Positions 4,767-62,100 of a stretch of 64,000 bases of DNA are shown in pieces (position 1 is the first letter of the stretch; every line of letters begins with the position of its first letter). This stretch comes from an uncultured Gammaproteobacteria bacterium (lineage in GTDB: Bacteria; Patescibacteriota; Microgenomatia; Levybacterales; GWA1-39-11): positions 25,307-89,306 of the forward strand of contig CAZAJO010000004.1 of assembly GCA_964485575.1 (NCBI GenBank), read 5' to 3'. The notes beneath the pieces were generated by a model. It saw nothing but the letters and a program-made list of their open reading frames with translations. It did not search any database and was not told the DNA's origin. The position numbers and the translations under genes were made by a program.

Positions 4767-7760
4767 TTAAACAACGAAATTCACGATCTTACCTGATACA
4801 TAAATGACTTTCTTAATATCTTGACCCTCTAATTGTTTCAAAACCGCAACTTTAGCTTTATTTTCAATCAGATTTCTATCTTCAAGATCTTGGCTACTAA
4901 TTTCTATTTCTCCCCTTCTTTTTCCGTTGATTTGCACAGGAATTACTGTTGATGATGAAATAAGATGCTTTTGGTCAAATTCAGGCCAATTACTCAAATG
5001 TATTGATCCCTCCCCAATTCCACTCCAAATCTCCTCTGTCATATGGGGAGCAAAAGGAGCAAGAAGCCTGAGATAAACCCTAACTTCTTCCTTGCTTAAT
5101 TCTTGATTGTTAACTCTTACCTCCTGGTTGAGGTAGTTGTACCACTCCATGAGCTTTGCGATTGCAGTGTTGTAGCCAAATTCGGATATATCTTTAGTGA
5201 CCCCCTGGATGGTTTTATGCATCATCATCGTCCTTTCATTACTCAGTTGTACTTCATCCTTTGATGATTGGGAAAGAAGTTTCCAGACTTTTCGTAAAAA
5301 TCTGTTCATACCCTCTATCCCACTATCCCTAAAGTCTCCACCGTCAGAGTATGGGCCTATGAACATGAGGTAAGTACGAAGAGTATCAGCCCCATATTTA
5401 CCGATGTACTCGTCAGGTACAACGACATTTCCTTTGCTTTTACTCATCTTTGCTCCATCCTTTATGATGAGACCATGAGCAAAGAAAGTAGAAAATGGTT
5501 CCTCGAAGTTCAAATACCCCAAATCGGACAGCACCATCGTGACAAAACGTGAATATAAAAGGTGTAGCACACTATGTTCTGCTCCGCCAATGTACATGTT
5601 TACTGGTAGCCATTTTCTAGTTGTTTCTATATCAAAAGGTGCTGTAGATACATCAGTTGAGGGGTATCTGAGGAAATACCAGCTACTATCAAGGAAAGTA
5701 TCTGACACATCGGTCTCTCGAGTTGCATCTCCCCCGCAAGATGGACAGGTAGTCTTGTAAAATTCAGGATGATTGGCAAGTGGAGCTTTTCCTGTTCCCA
5801 TTGGTTTCCAATCGGAAACTGATGGTAAAAGTACAGGAAGTTCAGCTTCAGAAACCGTAAACCATCCTTCCATGCCTGTTACCTCAGCTTTACCATTTTT
5901 TTGACAAGTTGAACAGAAGATCATAGGTATTGGCGGCCCCCAATACCTTTGTCGGGAAATGAGCCAATCCCTGAGGTGGAAATTGGATTTTCTAACCCCA
6001 ATTTCTCTTTTTTCAAGGTTTGAAAGAACTTGATCCATTTGCTCTGGCATTACAAGATCATTCCAGGTATCAGAATTTGTTAAGATCCCTTTTCCCGTAT
6101 AAGGCTCAACTTTGAACTCATCAGAACTATTTGTTGTATCAAACCCAAGCTCAATTGCCCGAGCTACTCCATGCTTTAAAAATCTTTCCCAATGTCTTAT
6201 ACCCTCAAGATCCGGATACGACAGCCAATTTTCAAGAATCTCTTTTGGCGTTCTCCAAACAAGCTCAAAATTCTCGTGCTCTTCATGTTTTGTAGGTAAT
6301 AAATCGTTGTCTTCTAGAATTACAAGATATCCTGAAGCTTTCGCAACCCTATATGACTTTCGCCCTCCACTGAAGAAATGAGGGTAGGCATCTCCAATCT
6401 TTTCAACGTGTTTGAAATTATGAAGCCCACTTTCTTCTGTCACTTCCCGCATTACGCCTTTTTCCTCATCTTCTCCTTCTTCTGTTCCTCCGGCAAATAA
6501 TCCTAGGAAGTTATCCCGCTCCGGCCAGAGCGCGACTGCATATTTTTGAGTCCTTGGATCAAATATCACACCTGCTCCTCCATCGCGTCTTTCTTCACCA
6601 TCATGAGGATTTCCATTTTCAGGCATGATAACCTGTTTTACAGCTAGGTTATATTTCTTGGCAAATTCAAAATCACGGCTGTCATGAGCAGGAACTGCCA
6701 TGATTGCCCCAGTTCCATAGCCTGAAAGTACATAGTCAGCGATCCAAACAGGAATCTCCTCATTATTTACAGGATTTATCGCTGTAAGGCCTGAATCAAC
6801 TCCAGTTTTTTCTTTCCCCTCCCCAGTTCTCTCAATATCAGTCTTATCCTTAACTTTTTCTATGTATTGCCTTACCTCTTTACTATCTAAAGTTGAAACA
6901 AGGCTGTGTTCGGGCGCAATAACCATGAATGTTGCACCATACAACGTATCTGGCCGTGTTGTAAAAACCTTCAAACTTTCCTCTCGATCTTTGATTTTGA
7001 ATTCAACCTCCGCTCCTTCACTTTTACCTATCCAATTTGTTTGGGCAATTTTGACCTTGTTCGACCAATCAAGACCTTCAATATTTTTAAGTAGTCTGTC
7101 TGCATATTTAGTAATCCTAAAGAACCACTGTTCAAGATTTTTCTTCTCCACTTTTGTGCCGCAACGCTCACACGACCCATCTATAACTTGCTCATCAGAC
7201 AAAACCGTTAAGTCTTTTGGACACCAATTAACAAGAGCGGTATCACGATATGCAAGGCCAGCTTTAAAAAGTGTTACAAATAGCCACTGGGTCCATTTAT
7301 AGTAATTTGGATTATATGTTTCGACCGTACGTTGCCAATCAAACGAGTTTCCAATACTTCTCATTTGCCTATAAAAGTTCTTCTCAGCAATCTCTGCCTG
7401 TTCTTTAGGGTGTCTTCCTACTTTTAAGGCATAGTTTTCACTATGAATACCAAATCCGTCTAACCCGATAGGCTCAAGAACATCCTTCCCTTGCATGCGT
7501 TGAAATTTTGCGTATACATCGGCACCAGTAAATGCGTACATATTGCCTACATGAAGCCCCTCTGCTGAAGGGTATGGGAACATCATGAGGTTAAAATATG
7601 GGTTCTTTGCTGCTTTTATATCAGGGCTAAAAGTCCTGTCACTCTCCCATTTCTCTTGCCATTTAGCCTCAATATCTGCTGGTATATATTTATTTTCTGC
7701 TGACTTTTGCTGCTTCATATAGACATCCTCTATTCTATCAAATCCAAGTACAAACTTCAC
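4767..7760 (-). CDS. leuS: Leucyl-tRNA synthetase carrying an internal NUDIX-hydrolase-like insertion; the true start is more likely the Met at 7718
   Basis: Class I HVGN (HIGH) and KMSKS motifs, and the CP1 editing motifs TTRPDT and AVPAHDSRD. A perfect Nudix box GGTEEGEDEEKGVMREVTEESGL lies between the editing region and the RDW/RYWG segment. Confidence 0.93.
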   Translation of the reverse strand: MKFVLGFDRIEDVYMKQQKSAENKYIPADIEAKWQEKWESDRTFSPDIKAAKNPYFNLMMFPYPSAEGLHVGNMYAFTGADVYAKFQRMQGKDVLEPIGLDGFGIHSENYALKVGRHPKEQAEIAEKNFYRQMRSIGNSFDWQRTVETYNPNYYKWTQWLFVTLFKAGLAYRDTALVNWCPKDLTVLSDEQVIDGSCERCGTKVEKKNLEQWFFRITKYADRLLKNIEGLDWSNKVKIAQTNWIGKSEGAEVEFKIKDREESLKVFTTRPDTLYGATFMVIAPEHSLVSTLDSKEVRQYIEKVKDKTDIERTGEGKEKTGVDSGLTAINPVNNEEIPVWIADYVLSGYGTGAIMAVPAHDSRDFEFAKKYNLAVKQVIMPENGNPHDGEERRDGGAGVIFDPRTQKYAVALWPERDNFLGLFAGGTEEGEDEEKGVMREVTEESGLHNFKHVEKIGDAYPHFFSGGRKSYRVAKASGYLVILEDNDLLPTKHEEHENFELVWRTPKEILENWLSYPDLEGIRHWERFLKHGVARAIELGFDTTNSSDEFKVEPYTGKGILTNSDTWNDLVMPEQMDQVLSNLEKREIGVRKSNFHLRDWLISRQRYWGPPIPMIFCSTCQKNGKAEVTGMEGWFTVSEAELPVLLPSVSDWKPMGTGKAPLANHPEFYKTTCPSCGGDATRETDVSDTFLDSSWYFLRYPSTDVSTAPFDIETTRKWLPVNMYIGGAEHSVLHLLYSRFVTMVLSDLGYLNFEEPFSTFFAHGLIIKDGAKMSKSKGNVVVPDEYIGKYGADTLRTYLMFIGPYSDGGDFRDSGIEGMNRFLRKVWKLLSQSSKDEVQLSNERTMMMHKTIQGVTKDISEFGYNTAIAKLMEWYNYLNQEVRVNNQELSKEEVRVYLRLLAPFAPHMTEEIWSGIGEGSIHLSNWPEFDQKHLISSSTVIPVQINGKRRGEIEISSQDLEDRNLIENKAKVAVLKQLEGQDIKKVIYVSGKIVNFVV

Positions 7761-7784
7761 TACAACGAAGTAAGTGGATTAATC

Positions 7785-7878
7785 GCGGGTGGCTAGCGGG
7801 GGGAGACCCTCACTGAGCATCCGCAGTGAAGCAACGCGAAACGAGGATTGTCGAGTGAGGAGCGACGACAGAACCCGC
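7785..7878. ncRNA. GC-rich structured RNA-like repeat, family 1 copy A (orientation undetermined)
   Basis: About 95 nt, near-identical to 9623..9718. Closing stem GCGGGU/ACCCGC and internal stem CCUCACU/AGUGAGG. Both stems show compensatory substitutions in copy B. Confidence 0.4.
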
Positions 7879-7889
7879 ACTTCTTGGCA

Positions 7890-7920
7890 GGAACCCAAAA
7901 ATTCTGATTTGTGCTACAAT
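7890..7920 (+). promoter_or_regulatory. Putative extended -10 promoter (TGcTACAAT) ahead of the Clp_N gene
   Basis: tttgtgctacaat at 7908..7920; the -35 is weak. The Clp_N ATG at 8043 is preceded by an aggag RBS. Confidence 0.3.
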
Positions 7921-8042
7921 CCCCCTATCGCTTTGCGGTTAAATAACGCTCGGCCTTTTGGCCTTAGCTTGCGTTGTGTTGGCCGTGAGGCTCGCACATT
8001 AAAAACGCAGGAATTATTCGTAACTACAGCAGGAGTACGTCA

Positions 8043-8498
8043 ATGAATCTGGAAGAACTCTATTTATCCGACCCTCTCCGAAGGACACTCATCCTTGCAG
8101 GTGACGAGGCCAAACGCCTCCGTCGTAAGGAAGTGTCCACCCTAGACATTGTCGCAGGGATGCTCCTTGAAGGAGAAGGAACTGCGGCAGTAGCCCTAGC
8201 ACGATTCGATGTGGACATCCATGCATATCGCCGTGCAGTCGGCAGAATTTTTGGAGAAGGGAAATCACCTCCAAATCCACAGATTGTCTTTACGCACAAG
8301 GCAGAAAAAGCGCTGATCGCCGGACGGGAAGTTGCTGACTGCCTCAACCACGTGACCACCGGAACCGGTCATGTCTTAATCGCTGTCACACGCGACGTGA
8401 GATCTGATGCCGCCGGAGTTCTGCAATCACTCAGGGTGAACCTTGATAATCTGAGGGCAATAGTCCTCACGATCATCTACGATTACCCTGGTCGGTGA
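8043..8498 (+). CDS. Clp N-terminal domain (double Clp_N repeat) protein, GC-rich
   Basis: STLDIVAGMLLEGEGTAAVALARFDVD and a second repeat match the ClpA/ClpC N-domain pattern. Codon third positions are strongly G/C, unlike the flanking genes. Confidence 0.7.
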   Translation: MNLEELYLSDPLRRTLILAGDEAKRLRRKEVSTLDIVAGMLLEGEGTAAVALARFDVDIHAYRRAVGRIFGEGKSPPNPQIVFTHKAEKALIAGREVADCLNHVTTGTGHVLIAVTRDVRSDAAGVLQSLRVNLDNLRAIVLTIIYDYPGR

Positions 8499-8564
8499 TG
8501 GTGCAACACATCCTACGGTGAGCTACTCGCTCACCCCGAACCCCTAGTTTTTGGAGGTGCCCAC

Positions 8565-8897
8565 GTGGGCGAGCAACTATCGGAATCCAGCCAAGATCAA
8601 GAGGCTGGCGAAAAGCCAAGGGCAGGCAGGGCGTCAGACCCTAAGCCCAAGCACCCAGGCACAGTCCTTGAGCGGCTTACGGCCATCCTCGTCGAACAAC
8701 TCGGCGTTGAAGAGGAGGACGTTACCCTAAGTGCCAACTTCGTTGACGACCTCAACGCGGACTCCCTCGACCTCGTCGAGCTCATCATGTCCCTGGAGGA
8801 GGAGTTCGACTCCGAAATCCCTGACGAGGACGCGAAAGCCATCACGGACGTCCAGGCGGCACTGGACTACCTCCGCGACCACGGCGTCGTCGACTAA
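8565..8897 (+). CDS. acpP: Acyl carrier protein (AcpP-like) with about 30-aa N-terminal extension; GTG start with GGAGG RBS
   Basis: [58 protein letters not shown] is near-canonical AcpP, including the DSL phosphopantetheine attachment site. GC-rich codons. Confidence 0.75.
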
Positions 8898-8922
8898 CGC
8901 CCTACCTGCGTTTTCAACCAAG

Positions 8923-8955
8923 AGGCGCCCTTCGGGGCGCCTTACCTTTCTTTGA
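8923..8955 (+). terminator. Intrinsic terminator after acpP-like gene
   Basis: aggcgccc-ttcg-gggcgcct hairpin with UUCG tetraloop, followed by tacctttctttg. Confidence 0.6.
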
Positions 8956-40088: not shown

Positions 40089-40787
40089 ATGAATTTTAAA
40101 AGATTTGTCGCAACATTTTTTGCTACAGCAGCTTTTCTTGCAACCGCAGGAAGCGCTATAGCTTCTGGTACCGGATATGGTACAAGTAACTGCCAAGTAA
40201 TCTACGGCGGAGGACAAGTTTGTCCAACAACCCTACAATTCTCTATAGATAAGAAAGTTCTTGCACCTACTAAAGGTGGGTCATTTGTTGATAATCTTGG
40301 ATTTAATGATGCAAAATTCCAACCAGGAGATCAGGTTTCATTTAAAATAACTCTAAAAAATACCGGAGACAAGACAATTGACCAAATAACTGTTGTTGAT
40401 ACTCTTCCAGCTTATCTTACATTTACATCTGGACCTGGAACTTATGATGCAACTTCAAGAACCGTTACCTATATCATAAAGAATATTGCTGCTAACCAAT
40501 CAAATGATCAGACAATAGTTGCTACTATCGCAAATGTTGATGCACTTCCAAAAGATCAAGGAGTTATGTGTCTTACAAACAATGTAAAAGGTAATGACAA
40601 TCAAAGTGACGTAGCAAACGATAGCTCTTCTTTTTGTATCCAAAAAGAAGCTATGACTCCAAAAGTATTCACAACAGTTCCACCTAAATCTATCCCAAAT
40701 ACCGGACCTGAAATGCTTCCTTTGCTTGGGCTTATCCCAGCTGGAATCGCAGGATTTACACTTCGAAGAAAATCAAAACTCGGATAA
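40089..40787 (+). CDS. Secreted surface protein with C-terminal sortase-type sorting signal (IPNTG + hydrophobic segment + basic tail)
   Basis: Signal peptide. C-terminus IPNTGPEMLPLLGLIPAGIAGFTLRRKSKLG. Confidence 0.6.
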   Translation: MNFKRFVATFFATAAFLATAGSAIASGTGYGTSNCQVIYGGGQVCPTTLQFSIDKKVLAPTKGGSFVDNLGFNDAKFQPGDQVSFKITLKNTGDKTIDQITVVDTLPAYLTFTSGPGTYDATSRTVTYIIKNIAANQSNDQTIVATIANVDALPKDQGVMCLTNNVKGNDNQSDVANDSSSFCIQKEAMTPKVFTTVPPKSIPNTGPEMLPLLGLIPAGIAGFTLRRKSKLG

Positions 40788-41244
40788 CGCCCGAGTCTAC
40801 GAGGGCGCAAGCTTTGCTTACGCCCACTCGTTAGGCTTGAGGTTAGAGAAGGCAGCTTTCACCAAATCACCCCAACAAATTCCCAAAAAGCTTTCTTCCC
40901 TGACTTTTAAGTTAGGAAAGTAGTATGCAGCAGACTATCCATTAGCTGGATAACTTTGCACCATATACCACTTTGTTCTTTGAAAATTGGTATACAGAAA
41001 TTATTTTTGGAAGACACTTCGGTGTCGGATTGAGCGTTCCGTTGGCATGAAAGCTGCACAATGGGCCGCTCAACCCGGCACTGTAAGTTACAACCGGGAA
41101 ACTTCACTTACAAGGAGAACATATTGGAGGCTCGATCTCCGCCCACCATTCCCCAACCGCAAGGTTAGGATCAAAGAATGTGAGCGGTATCGTCCGCCTA
41201 CATTCTTCCTTTAAGTCAGAGTTCAGTTCCGGAGGAACAACACC

Positions 41245-42177
41245 TTGTCTAGGTCATCCCAAGTTTGGGTCGTGTTCAGTATCATCGTCACCGCTATCGC
41301 GGTTGGCTGGGGTATGCACACGCTCGACAACACGGATTCTGCCATCGCGGACGAACCGTCCACGACGGCAACCGCCACAGTGGCGGCCACCCAGACGCCC
41401 AACCCGGGCGACAAGAAGGACCAGCCGCCGGCGCCTAGCGCCGTCTGCCGTCTTTCGGTCATCGGGCCTTGGTCCGAGATCAATGGCACCGCCCCCTACC
41501 GCATCGAAGTCGGTGGAGGCGATGTTCAGCACATGGACTTCTACCCCACGATTGGGGTCCAGTCCATCAGCTACATCGTCGACTCCCTTCCACGCGGCGG
41601 CGTCGCCGCCAAGTGGTACGGGTACGGCCAGATGTGGCAGGGCAACAAGCACGAGTGCGCTAACTTCGACTACGTCAAGGACGCCGTCGAGTACGCGAAG
41701 GGTAACGCCAGCGGCCAGCCCGGCCGCCTCCAGCAGGGCCACAGCGGGATCGTCATTGATCTCCGCGGTGGCAACTTCAAGATCATCGAGAAGCCGAAAG
41801 GCTGGACCGAAGATCAGATCGATGCCCTCATCGCCCTCCACAAGGCGGCGATGAACCCTGCCAATCCGCCTACTGCTGGTGCTGTTCAGGCTCCCAGCGG
41901 CAAGTGCGAAGCCGTCCGCGTTATGCAAGACGAAACCAAGCGCCCCAACGGCGCCAACAGTATCGTTAAGCTTGGCGGCGACGGCCACGCCTACGTCTTC
42001 GAACTCTGGAATCCAGAAGTTCAGGGCGGCAAGGAGATGAAGGTCCTGATTCCTGCAGGCGAAAGCCGTACGTTCACTGGTTTTGGTGGCGCCGCATGGC
42101 AATACCCAACCACGTGCACGGCTCAGCAGATCAAGGACGACTTCAACAACAACCCGAAGCCTGCCTATACCGGTTAA
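41245..42177 (+). CDS. GC-rich, N-terminally membrane-anchored hypothetical protein (310 aa); TTG start with GGAGG RBS
   Basis: ggagg at 41231..41235 and ttg at 41245. TM VWVVFSIIVTAIAVGWG. G/C-dominated third codon positions, unlike the flanks. The antisense ORFs in the track (41254..42102, 41180..41854) are GC-composition artefacts. Confidence 0.6.
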   Translation: MSRSSQVWVVFSIIVTAIAVGWGMHTLDNTDSAIADEPSTTATATVAATQTPNPGDKKDQPPAPSAVCRLSVIGPWSEINGTAPYRIEVGGGDVQHMDFYPTIGVQSISYIVDSLPRGGVAAKWYGYGQMWQGNKHECANFDYVKDAVEYAKGNASGQPGRLQQGHSGIVIDLRGGNFKIIEKPKGWTEDQIDALIALHKAAMNPANPPTAGAVQAPSGKCEAVRVMQDETKRPNGANSIVKLGGDGHAYVFELWNPEVQGGKEMKVLIPAGESRTFTGFGGAAWQYPTTCTAQQIKDDFNNNPKPAYTG

Positions 42178-42208
42178 TCCGGTGGCCGACTTCTCTGTAT
42201 ACCAAGCT

Positions 42209-42239
42209 CGGGATGGTCCCCTTCGGGGGGCCGTCCCGG
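42209..42239 (+). terminator. GC-rich UUCG-tetraloop hairpin immediately after the island-2 gene (terminator-like; weak U tract)
   Basis: cgggatggtcccc-ttcg-gggggccgtcccgg. Confidence 0.4.
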
Positions 42240-42347
42240 CAAGAGAGGGGAGGCGCTAACACCGCTTCCAAAGAACAAACCGGGCATGCCCGGCAGAACG
42301 CTTTGGAGTCGATTGCCTCCCCCCTTTCCCCCTGTACATAAAAACTT

Positions 42348-42578
42348 TTGTGTACAGAGCCGAAAGGTATGAAAATTTTACAAATAATAGTAATGGGAGT
42401 CATAGGAATAGGCCTTATTGGGGTCGTATATTTTCTTGGCATGAAGCATATCCAAAATGAAGCAATAGACAAATGTCTAGCCGTTGGAAAAGCACAATTT
42501 GTGAGAGATGGCCAGACTCTTACTGGTCCTGATGGATATTGGTATCAGTACTGTATGAAAGAAAAAGGGCTCAAATAA
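42348..42578 (+). CDS. Small single-TM protein (hypothetical)
   Basis: ILQIIVMGVIGIGLIGVVYFLG helix; native AT-rich codons. Short ORF, could be spurious. Confidence 0.4.
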   Translation: MCTEPKGMKILQIIVMGVIGIGLIGVVYFLGMKHIQNEAIDKCLAVGKAQFVRDGQTLTGPDGYWYQYCMKEKGLK

Positions 42579-42589
42579 AAAATATTAAT

Positions 42590-43477
42590 ATGAAAAAACC
42601 ATTAGTATCAGTCATCATGCCAGTCTATAATGCAGGAAAATTCCTAAAACCTGCAATCGATAGTATTTTGAATCAATCATTTCAGGATTTTGAACTTATT
42701 ATTATTGATGATGCCTCTTCAGATGGATCACTTGAGACATTGGAACAATACAAAAGACATTATCCTTTTAAGATAAAGGTTATCGAAATGAAGAAGAACC
42801 TCAATTGTGGTGGAGATAGATGTGCGAATGAAGGATTAAAAATTGCAAAGGGAACATATATTGCCAGAATGGATGCTGACGATGTTGCTCATAAGAGTAG
42901 GCTTCAAAAGCAAATAGACTTTCTTGAGTCTAATGAAGATGTATTTCTCGTCGGTTCAAACGCCTATGTGATTGATAAACAGGGAAAAATAATCGGTGAA
43001 AAAAATGAACCATCAACTCATAAAGAGATTTATAATTCCTATTTCTCTTTTCACCCTCTTATCCACCCTACGTGCATGATGAGAAGAACATTCAAAAACA
43101 AAAAGTTTAGCTACAAACTTTCATATAATGCCAATAATGACTATCTTACCTTCTTCACTCTTATTTGTAGTGGAGCAAAATTTGCCAATCTCAACGATAA
43201 ACTTTTGTACTATAGAATTCATGGAAAGAATGATACTTTCGTACATATGAAGCAAAAATTCATAAATACCATGAAGATCAGACTCAAGATGATCTCAAAA
43301 TATGGTTACAGACCAAGCAAACGGGCTGTAATACTTAGCATTATTCAAGCAACTGCATTTTTGATACTTCCCGAAAAGGTACTTTTTAATATGTACCTTA
43401 CGAGCCGCGGCATCATAAAAAGACCTGTATTTAATTTTTCATACAAAAATTTTATATCTGTGAGATTGAGTGCCTAA
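42590..43477 (+). CDS. Family 2 glycosyltransferase (start taken at MKKPLVSV rather than 42539)
   Basis: KPLVSVIMPVYNAGKFLKPAIDSILNQSFQDFELIIIDDASSDGS is the GT2 N-terminal signature including a DxD motif. Confidence 0.75.
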   Translation: MKKPLVSVIMPVYNAGKFLKPAIDSILNQSFQDFELIIIDDASSDGSLETLEQYKRHYPFKIKVIEMKKNLNCGGDRCANEGLKIAKGTYIARMDADDVAHKSRLQKQIDFLESNEDVFLVGSNAYVIDKQGKIIGEKNEPSTHKEIYNSYFSFHPLIHPTCMMRRTFKNKKFSYKLSYNANNDYLTFFTLICSGAKFANLNDKLLYYRIHGKNDTFVHMKQKFINTMKIRLKMISKYGYRPSKRAVILSIIQATAFLILPEKVLFNMYLTSRGIIKRPVFNFSYKNFISVRLSA

Positions 43478-46400
43478 TATGAATTTAGTCAAAAAAATAT
43501 GGAAAAACTTCTCTTACTACGCAGTAGCAAGCTTCGCTTACCCTCTGCTTCTCATAGTAATTGAAGCAGTAGTTTTTGCTGCAAATTTCACTCCAAAAAC
43601 ATACCTCATTGGCTGGGACAATGTCATGCCTGAGTTCAATTTGAAGTTAAATTACCTGAGAGCTTTAAGTGCTGTGTGGCAGGACTATAGAGGACTTGGA
43701 ACGCTGGATGGGATGGCACACGGTGCAAATCTCTTTCATGTTATGTATATCAATTTACTGAGCTTTTTCTTGCCTCAAAATATGCTCCGTTATTCATTTA
43801 TAGGACTTACTCATCTTATCGGAGGAATCGCTTTCTATTATTTGGCTGTGAAGCTATTCAAGAACAAACACGGGGCATTTTTGGGCGCCCTCTTTTATCT
43901 TTTTAACCTTGGGGTTATCCAAATGTACTTTGCCCCTCTTGAAGTATTTGCGATGCATTTTGCTGCTCTTCCTATTATGGGGCTTGCCATACTACATGCT
44001 ATAAAGAAAAAGACTAGAACCTCCTTATTTGTTCTAGGAGCTGCAAGTCTTATGACAACTCCACAAGCTTTTGTTCCAACAGTATTTATCTCCTACTCAC
44101 TTTTTGTAGCCCTACTTATGGTTTTTTCATTCAAAAAAACCTTGATCAAAAGATTTATTCTAATATTAGGAATTCTTTTTATTACCAATGCATTTTGGTT
44201 GCTTCCTTTTTCATATACTGCTCTTTTTAAGTCTGCCGTTGTCCAAAATACAAGGATCAATGAATTCTCATCTGAAGAGATCTATTACCGCAATAAGGCA
44301 AAAGGGAACATAACTGATGTCATGACTCTTAAGGGATTTATGATAGATACTATCGAATATGACTCATTTAAGAAAGAGAATTTTAACTTCATGCAAAAAT
44401 GGCTGGATCAGACAAAAACAGTATCATTTAAAATAATTTCTTCAGCAATCGCAGGACTTATGATCCTCGGGTCATTTCTTGTCATTCGTTTCAGGCTTAA
44501 ATCACTCTACCCATTTTTGGCTACAAATTTGATAACTCTCGTTCTTCTTGCCAATAATACTCCTGGCCTGACAATGGTTAATGATGGTGTTAGGACCATC
44601 TTCCCTCTTTTTGGTGAGGCTTTCCGCTTCCCCTTCACAAAGTTCATTACGGTTTTTGCTTTTACCTACGCGATGCTTTTTGGTCTTGGGGTGAGTTTTG
44701 CCATCAAATTTATCCTCAACGGCTTTTCTTCAGCCCTAAATCATATAGAGTTTTTAAAACATAGACTCAAAACTCTGTCTTTTTCCCTATACCTTTTGGC
44801 TATTCTTATATTATCCGCCTCTATCCTGTGGTACGCAAAGCCGATATTTACTGGTAATTTTACCTCACCATTTCTAAGACTTTCTGTACCTTCCGACTAT
44901 CAGGCAACGATGACTTATTTTAACGGTCAAAACCCCGATGGAAGAATACTTACTTTTCCGCTCAATAGTTTTTGGAACTGGGAGTATCGAAATTGGGGAC
45001 ACAGAGGTTCAGGCTTTTTATGGTATGGCATTTCCCAGCCTCTACTTATCAGAGCTTTCGACCCATGGAGTAACCAAAACGAACAACTCTATAACGAATT
45101 TGCCACATCTTATTCAAATAAGGATATAGCTTCATTTGATACACTTTTGAAGAAATATGATGTTTCATTTATATTAATTGATAAGACTGTTTTAAATACT
45201 ATATCTCCAAAACCAGTCGATTATGGTGAGGTTGAAGAATTCTTAAGTAAAAGCACATTGGTCAAAAAAGACGCATCTTTCGGAACTCAGCTTATATATA
45301 AGTCTAGAAAATTACCTTCAAAAGTAGCCCAACTACCACTTCTTAACACTATTAATTCTTACCCTGCAACATTACAACAATCAAAAGATACTTTAATTTC
45401 ATCATCAGGCAACTACTATGTATCAGCAAAAAATCCAGACATCATAACTCCCTTGCCGTCAATTTCAACATTGAAGTTACAGAAAGAAAACCAATTTAAC
45501 TGGCTCTACAAAAATAACGTCTTAACCTTTAGCTCGAAAAATGTACCATTCGAATCTAAAGGAAGAAAGATCCTACTTCCTTCCCTATTTAAGGATGAGT
45601 TCTTGATACCGGTCAGTAGTTCAACTGGAGAAAATACGGTCACAATAACACCGATATATCCAAATGTAGTCATTAATGGTAAAAGCTTAACAGTGCCGGT
45701 AACCCCTATTGTTATCCGTACAACAAACGTCACTTATCCAACAAAAATTAGTTTTGTAGATACAAATAATACGGTTGAAATTGGGGGTGATATCAACAGC
45801 TTTCTTCTAAATGACTTTACGAATACCATCAAAATCAGTGATGGTGTTAATGAAGAATACGCGACTATCGATACTACAACTGTTGAAAAATCTCCTATCG
45901 TCCTTGATATTCCATACGACAAAATAAGCTCATTTGAGATATCAGTGCCAACCTTTGATACCGAGCTTGGTAAAGCAAATTATGTAAAGAACAAGCAATA
46001 TATCATCACAAAAGCATCTGACCAATCAAAGATCAAAAACAAGACATCAAACTCAAAAACCACCATTACAAAAAATGGCGTAGGTCTTGAGACAATAAGT
46101 GATACTACTTCTCTTGATATATATCTTGACACTTTGTACCACGCTGCATCATACGCTGTTGTAGGCTCTATCAACCACAAAAAGGGTCTTCCTGTAAATT
46201 TTTATGTAGACAATCCAAAAGAATCAAAGCCAATCCTAGAGACAAAAATGGGTAATGGCCAAAATATTGCTATAGTTACTGGCACAGATACCTATTCAAA
46301 GGGGTATGGATTTCATTTCGGCGTAAAGTCAGTCGGCACTGAAATCGCAAACACGCAGATAAATGAGGTGAGCATATTTCCTATACCTCAAAAAACTATA

Positions 46401-46898
46401 GAATCAGTGCGTATCTTTAGTCCAAACTCCTATATATTATCGGGTCAAAATCCGGAAAAAGAAGCGCTTTCTTATACAAAAACCGGAGATTTTGTATTTG
46501 AAACTAATGGAAAAGACAACTCCATAATCACGTTGTCAGAATCATACGACAAGGGCTGGAAGGCATATGAGATGAAGAACAAGGGAATACTTGCTTCAAT
46601 ATTTCCATTTATCTTTGGGAAAGAGGTAAAATCACACGTCTTAGTCAACAACTGGGCAAATGGCTGGATACTGGATAGCAAACAACAAACTTCAAACACT
46701 AAGCTAGCTTTAGTCTACCTACCTCAATATCTTGAGATTTTGGGGCTTTCACTTCTTGGGATTCCTTTACTTTTTATTCTCATTTCTTTGTATGAAAGAT
46801 TCATGCTGCCTATTACAACTAATGTGGATGCATTCTTTGATGTAAGAGCCAACATGCTTCGCCGGAAAATAAATAAAAGTCTTCATCCTAATTCCTAG
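43470..46898 (+). CDS. Large (1142 aa) polytopic membrane protein, possibly a YfhO/ArnT-like membrane glycosyltransferase
   Basis: About 12 N-terminal TM helices, then a large hydrophilic domain and a final TM helix. Overlaps the GT2 gene by 8 nt. Confidence 0.65.
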   Translation: MPNMNLVKKIWKNFSYYAVASFAYPLLLIVIEAVVFAANFTPKTYLIGWDNVMPEFNLKLNYLRALSAVWQDYRGLGTLDGMAHGANLFHVMYINLLSFFLPQNMLRYSFIGLTHLIGGIAFYYLAVKLFKNKHGAFLGALFYLFNLGVIQMYFAPLEVFAMHFAALPIMGLAILHAIKKKTRTSLFVLGAASLMTTPQAFVPTVFISYSLFVALLMVFSFKKTLIKRFILILGILFITNAFWLLPFSYTALFKSAVVQNTRINEFSSEEIYYRNKAKGNITDVMTLKGFMIDTIEYDSFKKENFNFMQKWLDQTKTVSFKIISSAIAGLMILGSFLVIRFRLKSLYPFLATNLITLVLLANNTPGLTMVNDGVRTIFPLFGEAFRFPFTKFITVFAFTYAMLFGLGVSFAIKFILNGFSSALNHIEFLKHRLKTLSFSLYLLAILILSASILWYAKPIFTGNFTSPFLRLSVPSDYQATMTYFNGQNPDGRILTFPLNSFWNWEYRNWGHRGSGFLWYGISQPLLIRAFDPWSNQNEQLYNEFATSYSNKDIASFDTLLKKYDVSFILIDKTVLNTISPKPVDYGEVEEFLSKSTLVKKDASFGTQLIYKSRKLPSKVAQLPLLNTINSYPATLQQSKDTLISSSGNYYVSAKNPDIITPLPSISTLKLQKENQFNWLYKNNVLTFSSKNVPFESKGRKILLPSLFKDEFLIPVSSSTGENTVTITPIYPNVVINGKSLTVPVTPIVIRTTNVTYPTKISFVDTNNTVEIGGDINSFLLNDFTNTIKISDGVNEEYATIDTTTVEKSPIVLDIPYDKISSFEISVPTFDTELGKANYVKNKQYIITKASDQSKIKNKTSNSKTTITKNGVGLETISDTTSLDIYLDTLYHAASYAVVGSINHKKGLPVNFYVDNPKESKPILETKMGNGQNIAIVTGTDTYSKGYGFHFGVKSVGTEIANTQINEVSIFPIPQKTIESVRIFSPNSYILSGQNPEKEALSYTKTGDFVFETNGKDNSIITLSESYDKGWKAYEMKNKGILASIFPFIFGKEVKSHVLVNNWANGWILDSKQQTSNTKLALVYLPQYLEILGLSLLGIPLLFILISLYERFMLPITTNVDAFFDVRANMLRRKINKSLHPNS

Positions 46899-59329: not shown

Positions 59330-62100
59330 GGACTGACTTCTTGCCACTTCGTGTACGTGGTCTTGTAGAAATCAGTAAGCTGGGTTATAAAATCAGGTCG
59401 TGCACTAATATAGAGTGATGGATACAGTAGGTTATTGAAACAAAGACTTCTTCTATTTTGTAGTGTTCCAGTTCCAGACGTTGAGAAAGGTTTAAGGCTA
59501 TTTGCAACGAGGGCACCACCAACATTAAGCCGTAAATCTGAAGTTACAGTATCAGGACATGAATCACCATCCAATATTATGCTTCCCTGGGCAGTATAAT
59601 ATCCGTCAATATTACTTGTCGTTGAGGAGAGTGTTGCAGTTCCAATTGTTTTTGCTATCGTTATATTTCCTTTTGCAGCAACTATAAATATCCCTTGATT
59701 TTGAGCAATAGAAATAGTACTCGCGTTGATAGTCACGTTTCCATTTACAAGAATAACTACTCTTCTCCCAATAACATGTGTGTAGAGATTTATGGTGAGG
59801 TCCGCGGGGGATTCGTATACACCACTTGCAGTTATCTGTGTCTGATCAAATGTTCCTGCGGAAATAGGAGTAACTGTCACTCCATCTTGCTTTGTCTTTG
59901 ACTTATAGAAGTCGTAGCTCATACCACCATTTCTGTTCTCTGTATCTGCATTGTAAGAATATTCGTTATTGATGACCCAATTTTTAACAGAAGCAGCCCC
60001 AAAACCAAGATTTGCAGTGCTGTCTGAAGAATAAAATATCCCTGGATAATTCGCGTCAGTTGAGGCATAAAGTCCTGCGGGCACTGGATTACTGAGATTT
60101 AAGAATCGCACATCTCCCACGCTGGTCTGAAACCAAGGGTTAAGAGGTGCGATACAAAATGTAGCTACTTGATTATTGCTTCCTGTCGCAAATGATACTC
60201 CATTGCTTCCCAATGGTGACTCGACAGCTGGTGTCACATCTGTACCTATTACGGTGTATCCTGATGGAACCTGAAGACTTAACTGATAATTACCCTGTGG
60301 AAGACATGCAAATGCAGTGTCCCCTGTACCTGAATTGGTAGTCTGGTTAGTATTCACACTTCCACCATTTGTGATATTTAATGTCGCACCTACCCCACCA
60401 CTACTGTATGCAACTCCTGAAGATGAGTTACAAGTGCCAACGGCAGCAACTCTTCGAACATTAGCAGTAACAGTCACCGTTGTTGGTACCGTAATTGAGG
60501 CTGTATAATTTGTTGATCCCCCTGGACCTCCAACTGTCACACGTGGCGTGTAGGTTGTCTGGGATGCTGGACAAGCTGGAGCTGTCCATGTTGTTGTTGA
60601 GCTTGTAGATGTATCTGTCTGTCCACTAACGGTTGGGGGTGGGTTGTTGCCACCAGTATCTGGGTTCCAAGTGAATGGTGGTGGAGGAAGACTATCATCT
60701 GGATTTTCGACATTTGTACATGATGTAACCGATAGTGTGACAGTTCCTCCAGGATTTGCACTTCCACCTGGTGGATTAAGCGTGATTGAACCTGGAGTAC
60801 ACGCAGGTACTGATTGACGAATTCCGAAATTGACCCCTGATGCATCAGGGCCCAAAGAAACAGCCCTTGGATTGGTATTACCACCAGCCGTTCCCATTGA
60901 ATAGCCTGCAGGCAGTGTAAGCGTGATATTATAGCTTCCAGCACTGTTGCTCAAAAAGCTATACGTACCGTTTGCAGCTGTTGTCGTAGATGGATCTGCC
61001 CCTGGTCCTACCCTTTGGACTGATGCGTTTGCCACATTTAACTCATCACCAGCACCATTGTTGCATGCTCCTGAGCAATTCTGAACCCCACTATTATTGG
61101 TGTCAACATAGACCTTCCCAGTCACATCATATGTACAGTCAGCTACACAATTAGCAGCTGTCTCACCGGCATCACAAACTCCATTCCCACAGGTACAATC
61201 AAAATCAGTACTGCAATTTCCGAAAAATCCGCACCCTTGGGGCTGACAAGAATTACCGACGCATGAGCTCACCTCTACTTGTCCAAAACCGCACCCTCCA
61301 CCACCCCCGCTTGGCGGAAGGCAAGTCCCTCCAGCTCCCGGAGCAACGCACGTGTCTCCTGCAGAACAACAAACAGTGCCACACAAAAACCCAGACCCAC
61401 AAGCTCCACCACCTGGAGGTGATGTTGGCGCAGGGGTACCTCCTGTTCCTCCCCCACCACAAGGTGGTGAGGATGAACACCAGGCTCCACAAGAATTACA
61501 GATAGGTTGCGAGTATGTGCTGGATGGAACAGTACAATTACAACTTCCATCGTAAACATAAATTTGAGAAGAACCACAGCTTACACAAAAATCATTACAA
61601 TAAGTACCTGGAGTACAACCTAAAGCTGGGGTTGGCGTTGCTTGGGGAGCTGGACAGCTTGGATCCACTTTTCCTCCCTGTACACATGATCCACCAGAAC
61701 ATACTCCATAACGCTCACAACCTTGTCCATCAAAACTATTAAAACAATTTGAGGGTCCACACGTAGATCCACCTCCCCAGTTACATTCATTAACTATATT
61801 AGCGGAAGCTCCATAACAAGCTTGAGATAAGTAGCATGCAAATTCATCGCTCGCAAAACAACCTCGCCATTCTATATCAGACCCATTAATGACACACGCA
61901 CAATGTCCACCCAGTCCACCACATACCGAACCCTGAGTTGTACAGACACCACTAATCCCATCGTCACAATTACAATCGTAATGGGGCGTCGAACAACTAT
62001 AGCTTCCTGTACAACTCTGGGCAAACGAAGTATTTACAACAAATGAAAAGCAAAAAAGAAGAAATATAACAATAAATACCTTTAGGATTCGAGATTGCAT
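59326..62100 (-). CDS. Secreted 924-aa surface protein with N-terminal Cys/Gly-rich (EGF-like or disulfide-knot-like) region and Thr/Ser-rich beta-rich body
   Basis: Signal peptide MQSRILKVFIVIFLLFCFSFVVNTSFA. More than 60 Cys in the first 330 aa. Overlaps the pth stop by 4 nt. Confidence 0.65.
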   Translation of the reverse strand: MQSRILKVFIVIFLLFCFSFVVNTSFAQSCTGSYSCSTPHYDCNCDDGISGVCTTQGSVCGGLGGHCACVINGSDIEWRGCFASDEFACYLSQACYGASANIVNECNWGGGSTCGPSNCFNSFDGQGCERYGVCSGGSCVQGGKVDPSCPAPQATPTPALGCTPGTYCNDFCVSCGSSQIYVYDGSCNCTVPSSTYSQPICNSCGAWCSSSPPCGGGGTGGTPAPTSPPGGGACGSGFLCGTVCCSAGDTCVAPGAGGTCLPPSGGGGGCGFGQVEVSSCVGNSCQPQGCGFFGNCSTDFDCTCGNGVCDAGETAANCVADCTYDVTGKVYVDTNNSGVQNCSGACNNGAGDELNVANASVQRVGPGADPSTTTAANGTYSFLSNSAGSYNITLTLPAGYSMGTAGGNTNPRAVSLGPDASGVNFGIRQSVPACTPGSITLNPPGGSANPGGTVTLSVTSCTNVENPDDSLPPPPFTWNPDTGGNNPPPTVSGQTDTSTSSTTTWTAPACPASQTTYTPRVTVGGPGGSTNYTASITVPTTVTVTANVRRVAAVGTCNSSSGVAYSSGGVGATLNITNGGSVNTNQTTNSGTGDTAFACLPQGNYQLSLQVPSGYTVIGTDVTPAVESPLGSNGVSFATGSNNQVATFCIAPLNPWFQTSVGDVRFLNLSNPVPAGLYASTDANYPGIFYSSDSTANLGFGAASVKNWVINNEYSYNADTENRNGGMSYDFYKSKTKQDGVTVTPISAGTFDQTQITASGVYESPADLTINLYTHVIGRRVVILVNGNVTINASTISIAQNQGIFIVAAKGNITIAKTIGTATLSSTTSNIDGYYTAQGSIILDGDSCPDTVTSDLRLNVGGALVANSLKPFSTSGTGTLQNRRSLCFNNLLYPSLYISARPDFITQLTDFYKTTYTKWQEVSP

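Follow-up and report, generated by a model that had tools for sequence, protein, structure and literature searches.

What is a block of strongly GC-rich DNA doing in a genome of 39.1% GC, and is it a recent foreign insertion or a lasting part of its locus? This question is raised by a 64,000-nucleotide (nt) stretch of contig CAZAJO010000004.1 from assembly GCA_964485575.1 (hereafter the window), in which an earlier note, made from the sequence alone, had described a foreign-looking unit between two native neighbours: a structured 5′ leader, a GC-rich gene for a membrane-anchored protein (here gene X) and a structured 3′ element. The window lies on contig C4 of the host genome (G000; 1.2 Mb, 23 contigs, 99% complete), and the sequencing runs containing the locus sequence come from wastewater and from activated sludge. 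The genome looks like that of a candidate-phyla-radiation (CPR) bacterium; a gammaproteobacterial label, as the assemblies of its relatives bear, does not fit genomes of 0.7–1.7 Mb with sortase signals and is probably a placeholder, the protein-atlas match of Rho (commonest taxon Candidatus Woeseibacteriota) is weak, and C4:1–6000 contains no rRNA. What emerges above all is a conserved slot, filled in every relative examined, that carries exchangeable surface-protein genes; it is bracketed by inverted repeats and, in relatives, closed by a ribozyme. We consider it probable that positions 40980–42373 of the window represent one filling of this slot, which serves foreign-derived, GC-rich surface-protein cassettes. 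The observation of the earlier note was thus sound and its foreign-unit reading partly supported, namely as to composition and likely origin, whilst it overlooked the hypervariability and domain swapping of the gene, the flanking inverted repeats and the hammerhead position at 42326–42373.

The GC content over 41001–42500 amounts to 0.57, 0.62 and 0.51 in successive 500-nt steps, in surroundings of approximately 0.35–0.43, so that a GC-rich island (0.57–0.62 against the genome mean of 0.391) is indeed present. The open reading frame (ORF) of X was found as described, with its TTG start, a GGAGG motif and GC-dominated third codon positions: X displays a GC content of 0.61 and a GC content at third positions (GC3) of 0.765, whereas GC3 in five neighbouring genes lies between 0.19 and 0.34, and from this difference the bias must sit at synonymous sites and not in amino-acid content alone. 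GC-rich blocks of this kind are easily dismissed as contamination or chimeras; here the block is reproducible and organised, with its two junctions bridged by independent contigs of run X1 (40436–41182 and 42034–42688) and also present in assemblies from ENA, Logan, JGI and GTDB genomes. Deviating composition is a hallmark of a genomic island that X displays (GC 0.61 and GC3 0.77, against 0.39 and approximately 0.2–0.3); presence/absence polymorphism among close relatives and mobility genes were not found at the slot, and its border repeats are inverted and not of the direct att type.

The gene order around the block is kept in relatives: Rho (on the opposite strand), a DUF11 gene, X, a GT2 glycosyltransferase and a large GT-C-like gene follow one another, and X homologues occupy the same slot in the same orientation in approximately 20 loci of other strains, genera and families. 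The earlier note had named low-GC orthologues at the same locus as evidence that would speak against it; the same-locus orthologues are GC-rich as well, with 54–66% GC and a GC3 of 0.56–0.86 on contigs of 33–46% GC, apart from one exception group (0.50 versus 0.46). The X family is patchy, being present in all three closest genomes, in 4 of 49 genomes of the family and in 4 of 401 sampled in the class. The slot itself was never empty in the survey of relatives that the note had proposed: after the DUF11 gene, which adjoins the slot in all loci examined, a block of 0.85–4 kb with 52–62% GC follows in 24/24 family genomes fetched and in five other species of the genus. The slot ORFs of the five genus members inspected are non-homologous to each other, and the encoded proteins mostly start with a membrane anchor or lipobox followed by a Thr/Ala/Pro linker.

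These data bear directly on the possibility of a recent, strain-specific horizontal insertion of one foreign transcription unit. Such an event would account for the sharp GC borders, the GC3 of 0.77, an excess of GC-to-AT changes (see below) and for the TTG start and hairpins lacking a U tract, both of which are common in high-GC bacteria. Against it stand the presence of the same gene family in the same slot of other strains, genera and families, the constant filling of the slot across the family genomes fetched, and a leader and 3′ untranslated region (UTR) that are conserved and common to alleles with differing coding sequences. Furthermore, the borders lack the usual traces of insertion: the tRNA search at the locus gave no match, no integrase gene was present among the called neighbours beside the slot and the repeats at the borders are inverted, not direct. 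We therefore judge a recent insertion to be very improbable; of the foreign-looking unit, the deviating composition (synonymous sites included) stands, whilst the discrete recent insertion between native genes does not.

The content of the slot is exchanged rapidly. Comparison of the window with two sister loci reveals 98.5–100% identity for Rho and 97–99.6% for DUF11, though only 47–77% for X. Against locus L004, the window is identical through the leader and the N-domain of X to approximately 41880, unrelated over the C-domain and identical again from 42195, and the alignment thus points to a recombination breakpoint near 41880. At least two N-domain types and at least two C-domain types are combined differently among the alleles. 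The leader retains approximately 85% nucleotide identity over five loci in which the X proteins are 37–82% identical: the UTRs hence act as a constant frame within which the coding modules are exchanged. A diversity-generating retroelement does not fit this pattern, given that X alleles differ by indels, by changes of all four bases and by whole domains; there is no reverse transcriptase among the slot neighbours, and a search of 40780–42600, in which direct repeats were not sought, returned only three inverted-repeat pairs.

Allele comparison also speaks to the question of whether X is a gene at all. In AT-rich genomes, segments of high GC often turn out to be structural RNAs, and with several frames open and both flanks folding strongly the stretch could be taken for a large structured non-coding RNA with an accidental ORF. 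Against this, the third codon position changes most (38, 22 and 83 changes at positions 1, 2 and 3 among three close alleles) and indels between alleles are multiples of three. A word-based search identified 18 relatives of X and a full profile search 242 representative clusters, with Cys68, Cys138, Glu88, Gly90, Gly91, Gln95, His96, Asp98, Arg161 and a GHSG motif invariant in the alignment. Together with the modelled domains of the protein (see below) and the lack of an Rfam match, these results make an accidental reading frame scarcely credible.

The X protein comprises a membrane anchor (residues ~5–24), a Thr/Ala/Pro linker, an N-domain (~65–205) and a C-domain (~220–310). The AlphaFold2 (AF2) model exhibits an overall predicted local distance difference test score (pLDDT) of 72.5, with an N-terminal helix at residues 5–19, a disordered linker, a conserved alpha/beta N-domain and a variable beta-sandwich C-domain, both domains reaching a pLDDT of 80–90. 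The C-terminus of X reads NPKPAYTG with nothing beyond, and an LPXTG-type sortase signal is absent from X itself; the model instead supports anchoring through the N-terminal helix. The DUF11 protein upstream does end in IPNTG with a hydrophobic segment and basic tail after it, the sortase-type signal that had been attributed to this neighbour, and the downstream neighbour is a GT2 glycosyltransferase, again as described. Of the surface exposure predicted for X, the membrane anchor is upheld by the AF2 helix, and on account of this anchor exposure itself is plausible only. Distant homologues carry lipoprotein-type signals (LAGC or ITGC), and the C-domain is found by itself and in tandem as well.

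The N-domain has a counterpart at the C-terminus of a protein with a Pkinase domain (a Ser/Thr kinase; 34% identity, E = 3e-22), the contig of which has 68% GC throughout. This likeness to the extracytoplasmic sensor domains of Ser/Thr kinases suggests a ligand-binding module that would lie outside the cell; X differs from these kinases in that it has no kinase domain and is a stand-alone membrane-anchored ectodomain with an additional beta-sandwich. X would be an anchored binding protein on the extracytoplasmic side, and it belongs to an undescribed two-domain family: searches of Pfam, PHROGs, PDB profiles and the protein atlas (the earlier note had proposed BLASTP/HHpred) gave nothing usable, and Foldseek with the AF2 model returned zero matches at E ≤ 0.001. 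The best VIA Z score was 4.4, for cupin-, carbohydrate-binding-module- and gelsolin-like arrangements, and no fold was assigned. No relatives of X were found in viral contigs, and a viral origin is thus not supported.

Where, then, does the high GC content come from? Gene transfer is frequent in Patescibacteria (PMC12455944). Polarised substitutions among the window, L007 and L018 comprise 72 GC-to-AT versus 32 AT-to-GC changes (43 versus 15 at third positions), and on two of the three terminal branches the third positions show 29 versus 2, which is the AT pressure of the genome itself acting unopposed. We infer that the GC-rich coding modules come from outside and are replaced faster than they decay. 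This must be weighed against the maintenance of GC in place, either through selection for a structured and stable mRNA or through GC-biased repair at a recombination hotspot, in which case the cassettes would be old residents. Such maintenance would agree with a slot that is GC-rich throughout the family and beyond, with the near confinement of the X family to this slot, with the balanced third positions on the window's own branch and with the evidently intense recombination at the locus. It is contradicted by the two branches that behave as unopposed decay predicts, by slot contents that are non-homologous among species of one genus and by the relative of the N-domain on a truly high-GC contig. 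A second slot of the same genome argues in the same direction: a GC-rich gene for an 887-amino-acid (aa) pyruvate phosphate dikinase (PPDK) lies within 40817–44120 of G000 contig C7 (L056, L059) and is found only in G000 and G034, whereas G036 (contig C22, L116) carries a different GC-rich gene for a 772-aa phosphoenolpyruvate-utilising enzyme between the same promoter and 3′ hairpin, the two enzymes being 30–40% identical in strains that are otherwise approximately 97% identical. Maintenance in place thus appears unlikely, and an outside origin of the coding modules remains our preferred explanation.

The variable DNA is bracketed by a perfect 12-nt inverted repeat, the left arm of which (TTGGTATACAGA) matches a right arm (TCTGTATACCAA) 16 nt past the stop codon of X; the adjoining segment 40972–40985 (TTTGTTCTTTGAAA) has a second, weaker partner at 42266–42279. 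Arms in other species, 10–16 nt in length, read GACAAGGTAACAGGAA, GACAAGGTATACAAA, AAGGTACACAAAA and AAGCATACAGG, among others, with further species-specific variants being AAGGTATGTAGG, AAAGGCATGTAG, CAGGCATCATCAA and CGGTGTACAG, and each variant has its perfectly matching partner on the other side of the GC-rich block. Arms of at least 11 nt are present in 17/34 loci (controls: 4 reversed, 1 direct), and left and right arms co-vary in at least 20 of the 34, with at least eight arm variants each matched by a partner. Genome-wide, 5′/3′ flanking inverted repeats showed no excess over shuffled gene pairs, and the repeat is hence a property of the slot, perhaps of a few islands, and not of genes generally. 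The left arm comes after a conserved −35-like hexamer (TTGACA, TTAACA or TTGAAA), and the right arm lies just 5′ of a GC-rich hairpin or a hammerhead. The PPDK island repeats this arrangement with a 15-nt inverted repeat, its left arm between TTGAAA and TAGATA and its right arm just before a GC-rich hairpin.

Two functions of this repeat can be envisaged. Pairing of the 5′ and 3′ ends of the cassette RNA is hinted at by the right arm of the G036 PPDK slot, in which two A-to-G changes both yield G-U pairs on the sense strand only, and by G368, where the left arm lies directly 3′ of an upstream hammerhead and must for this reason be transcribed. Alternatively, the arms could be recombinase sites, delimiting either an invertible ON/OFF segment that splits the promoter or a cassette subject to site-specific exchange. 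As in invertons, inverted repeats flank the segment; the arms are perfect, strictly Watson–Crick and abrupt in their ends, they bracket exactly the variable DNA, and with the left arm between the −35-like hexamer and the leader an inversion would disconnect the promoter. However, the cassette points the same way in over 30 independent assemblies and in contigs from four runs, with no strand-changing joints, as far as contigs, which hide minority forms, can tell; moreover, no recombinase gene lies in or beside the slot, the arm sequence varies by species and island to a degree that a single site-specific enzyme could not tolerate, and the changes in the PPDK slot fit pairing on the sense strand alone. 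Recombinase sites are therefore quite improbable, and we favour pairing of the RNA ends over a role of the DNA, albeit with low confidence.

In relatives, the 3′ border of the slot contains a further element. Starting 0–12 nt after the right arm, there follow the 5′ strand of stem III, the UH site, the hairpin of stem I, CUGAUGA, stem II, GAAA and the 3′ strand of stem III, with the start codon of the next gene directly after: the layout of a type III hammerhead in which stems I and II are closed and stem III is open. The full core (CUGAUGA, GAAA and UH site) is present in L045, L046, L048, L074–L077, L079, L082 and L083. The Rfam type III model (RF00008, clan CL00010) matches these elements only partially (18.8 bits), owing to their long stem II and short stem III, whilst a model built here (R1) scores 54–75 bits on its ten training loci. 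In the model-fitted alignment (A6), 91% of cells are paired against 32–52% in slid controls, and 14 of 17 pairs, across all three stems, show compensatory changes, a score that 0/500 shuffles reach. The hammerhead in relatives is thus supported by covariation, and its self-cleavage is predicted. It occurs in 17/49 family genomes and 37/151 order genomes, usually as one copy, and at least 13 of 18 family copies are found no more than a few kb from the DUF11 gene of the same genome.

The window and its sister strains have no hammerhead. The corresponding segment 42326–42373 keeps CCUUU, a hairpin and GAAAGGUAUG (with GAAA kept), though it has neither CUGANGA nor stem II, scores 2.1 bits with model R1 and gives no Rfam match, so that the window's element is not a hammerhead. 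Its positional homology is supported by G368 (L133), where a homologue of the small ORF that overlaps this segment in the window lies directly 3′ of an intact hammerhead; the window retains at most a hammerhead remnant.

Arrays of such elements were observed on the reverse strand in a sister family (L132, G491:C5:14000–29000; L133, G368:C1:143000–158000). Their units consist of GC-rich small ORFs, each followed by a GC-rich hairpin and a type III hammerhead, amounting to five (L132) and four (L133) hammerhead copies within 8–10 kb on both sides of the DUF11 gene. Inverted repeats are mostly absent from these units, with one unit only having them. Four of the G491 copies have one common stem III (CUGU-C ... 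GAAACAG), so that the joined ends of an excised unit could make up a hammerhead again.

Gene X carries its own expression signals, with a structured leader and 3′ hairpins, and the hairpins listed in the earlier note were all found, at coordinates off by a few bases at most. The leader (41010–41260) folds at −94.5 kcal/mol (z = −5.9) and the 3′ region (42175–42365) at −90.4 kcal/mol (z = −6.9), with 0/200 shuffles as good in each case. A scan of the window against Rfam, which that note had proposed for the leader and 3′ region, gave nothing at the gathering score, the nested 3′ element included, and low-scoring matches (FsrA, isrB, L31 leader and others) were taken as chance. Within the leader lie the hairpin GACAC-UUCG-GUGUC (approximately 41013–41026), the hairpin GAUUGAGCG / CGCUCAACC, the imperfect stem AAGAAUGUGAGCGG / CCGCCUACAUUCUU (41174–41207) and a GUUCC-GGA-GGAAC hairpin that encloses the ribosome-binding site GGAGG (41231–41235), which is located 9 nt before the TTG; both TTG and GGAGG are kept in five loci. 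Leader covariation is weak (2 compensatory pairs), as the leader is nearly invariant. Upstream, the promoter-like motif (G)TTCTTTGACA / TTAACA is kept across genera; a promoter consensus over sites beginning TTGAMA showed no clear −10 signal. Contigs from two RNA libraries cover 41091–41422, 41279–41702 and 41679–41870 and join leader and coding sequence; the parts they leave uncovered and their lack of strand-changing joints carry no weight.

The 3′ elements show more covariation than the leader, with 4 compensatory pairs and additional G-U changes. The UUCG-loop hairpin is probably a terminator or a block to 3′ exonucleases. It is followed by the nested set named in the earlier note (GGGGAGGCG...GCCUCCCC), which spans 42247–42323 and is built from GGGGAGGCG / UGCCUCCCC around CUUCCAAAG / CUUUGGAG and CCGGGC-AU-GCCCGG; its interior is deleted in L002. 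A likeness of GCGCUAACACCGC to the twister ribozyme was rejected, there being no Rfam twister match. Where relatives have a hammerhead, the window's lineage probably relies on the UUCG hairpin and the nested stem to set the 3′ end. The AT-rich element downstream reaches into the small ORF, overlapping both its ribosome-binding site and its start (Table 1).

Table 1. Positions of the features of the slot and its flanks within the window.
Feature	Positions	Strand	Basis and remarks
DUF11 gene (PF01345; CLIPPER in precomputed tables)	40089–40787	+	232 aa; upstream anchor of slot
Promoter-like site	40980–41007	+	AT-rich; TTGAAA, 16 nt, TATTTT; from consensus scan
Left arm of inverted repeat	40987–40998	.	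12 nt; perfect match to right arm
GC-rich structured 5′ leader	41008–41244	+	Folding, conservation, RNA-library contig
Gene X	41245–42177	+	TTG start; 310 aa; GC 0.61, GC3 0.765
Right arm of inverted repeat	42194–42205	.	
UUCG-loop GC-rich hairpin	42209–42238	+	Without U tract; G-U and compensatory changes in L007 and L008
Nested stem element	42247–42323	+	2 compensatory pairs
AT-rich hairpin CUGUACA...UGUACAG, then AGCC-GAAAGG-UAUG	42326–42373	+	Comparison with L045 and L046
Small ORF	42369–42578	+	69 aa; N-terminal membrane segment; 88–93% identical between sister loci
GT2 glycosyltransferase	42590–43477	+	Pfam matches on orthologues; downstream anchor of slot
Large protein	43470–46898	+	1142 aa; orthologues with weak GT-C_AftD matches; Pfam scan of the window's own protein: no match

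Taken together, the cassettes would originate in high-GC bacteria and circulate among small-genome bacteria via recombination in the conserved UTRs and flanks, at a pace exceeding GC decay; the driver may be diversifying selection on the surface protein, e.g. for attachment to partner cells or evasion of phages. Expression would start from the native AT-rich promoter and translation from the TTG behind a partly paired ribosome-binding site, the GC-rich hairpins would set the 3′ end of the transcript and the co-varying inverted repeat would bring the two ends of the cassette RNA together by 5′–3′ pairing. In relatives, the type III hammerhead past the right arm is predicted to cut the cassette RNA off from the downstream glycosyltransferase message, whilst in the window's lineage the ribozyme core would have been lost and local hairpins have taken over.

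Several of our own observations weigh against this reading. With regard to origin, the window's branch is balanced at third positions (14 GC-to-AT versus 13 AT-to-GC), which recombination with GC-richer alleles could explain, as could some GC-maintaining force; in addition, almost all members of the X family were seen in low-GC small genomes and the donor lineage was not found, so that the case for a foreign origin draws on composition, on the signal of decay and on a single relative of high GC. The X protein has no functional match, the Z score of 4.4 being that of its best fold match. In case of the repeat, all X-slot arms are strictly Watson–Crick with zero G-U pairs, and the left arm sits just past a −35-like hexamer, as would suit a site acting at the DNA level better than an RNA helix. 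All RNA evidence comes from short contigs, for which DNA carry-over is possible, and the putative hammerhead relic of the window is suggested by its position only (2.1 bits). A wider scheme, in which an order-wide system holds captured high-GC genes in fixed slots or arrays, with transcripts cut by type III hammerheads, the ends of each unit clamped 5′ to 3′ and, in arrays whose ribozymes have one stem III in common, ends that may re-form a hammerhead and circularise, is a tentative extension that we consider possible but rather doubtful; if true, it would provide long-lived messages for rapidly exchangeable surface proteins.

Comparison with known systems reveals partial likeness in each case. 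Variable surface-antigen loci (O-antigen, capsule, pilin, flagellin) resemble the slot in their conserved flanks, mosaic and divergent alleles in near-identical strains, atypical composition, cell-envelope context and surface-exposed product; the slot, however, deviates towards much higher and not lower GC, each unit consists of one gene that has its own conserved leader and 3′ UTR, sister species have unrelated genes in the slot, and inverted repeats and a ribozyme bracket it. Integron cassettes and integration hotspots likewise combine a fixed position, foreign genes and a resident promoter, and the sister-family arrays, with each unit ending in a structured element, resemble integrons further. 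In contrast to these, the slot repeats are inverted and species-specific, the units are punctuated by hammerhead and GC-rich hairpin, and there was neither an integrase among the called neighbours nor an Rfam match at the gathering score, although no dedicated attC/IntI search of the genome was made.

Reduced-genome, ultra-small bacteria are thought to live attached to other microbes, and little is known of the ways in which they identify partners and renew their surface. The slot is a concrete candidate for partner recognition or phage evasion, since it always holds compositionally foreign, fast-swapping genes for anchored surface proteins, and its contents naturally document from which organisms these bacteria receive DNA. 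What hammerheads do in bacteria is likewise poorly understood: a fixed association with the slot would give such a ribozyme a defined job, namely splitting the cassette message from the downstream operon. The literature searched contained no report of GC-rich slots, of these repeats or of hammerheads in these bacteria, nor a description of a fixed single-copy hammerhead position behind a cassette slot.

Some further observations concern the slot in relatives. Among species without X, two loci (L045, 3940–4075; L047, 3640–3700) have in common another conserved element in the leader, GCCGGGCACAGCGUACCAU ... AUGGUGCGCGCUGUCCGG, which forms a long imperfect hairpin whose internal loops are likewise conserved; it gave no match in Rfam and may be a regulatory RNA. 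At L055 (2324–6068), PIN-domain and MazE-type toxin–antitoxin genes also lie between DUF11 and GT2.

The genome contains approximately 15 GC-rich blocks in total, and islands of like character, which the earlier note had proposed, do exist elsewhere. A third island (G000 contig C10, 43080–44900; L057) encodes a 495-aa membrane-anchored protein (GC3 0.81, no Pfam match) behind TTGAAAATTG, and displays the same layout as the X slot, with a 10-of-11 inverted repeat (GATTTACATGA / TCATGCAAATC) followed by a GC-rich hairpin. Island 1 of the window (7760–8950) is GC-rich and encodes a 151-aa Clp_N-domain protein (8043–8498) and a 110-aa acyl-carrier-type protein (8565–8897); its layout corresponds to that of X, with a 10-nt inverted repeat (AAAACGCAGG, 8002–8011; CCTGCGTTTT, 8905–8914) and then a UUCG hairpin, although this 10-mer alone is within chance. 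Finally, positions 60500–61500 of the window (minus strand; GC 0.49–0.52) are apparently part of a very long Cys/Gly/Pro/Thr-rich ORF, and their GC content looks like the result of amino-acid bias rather than of a foreign island.

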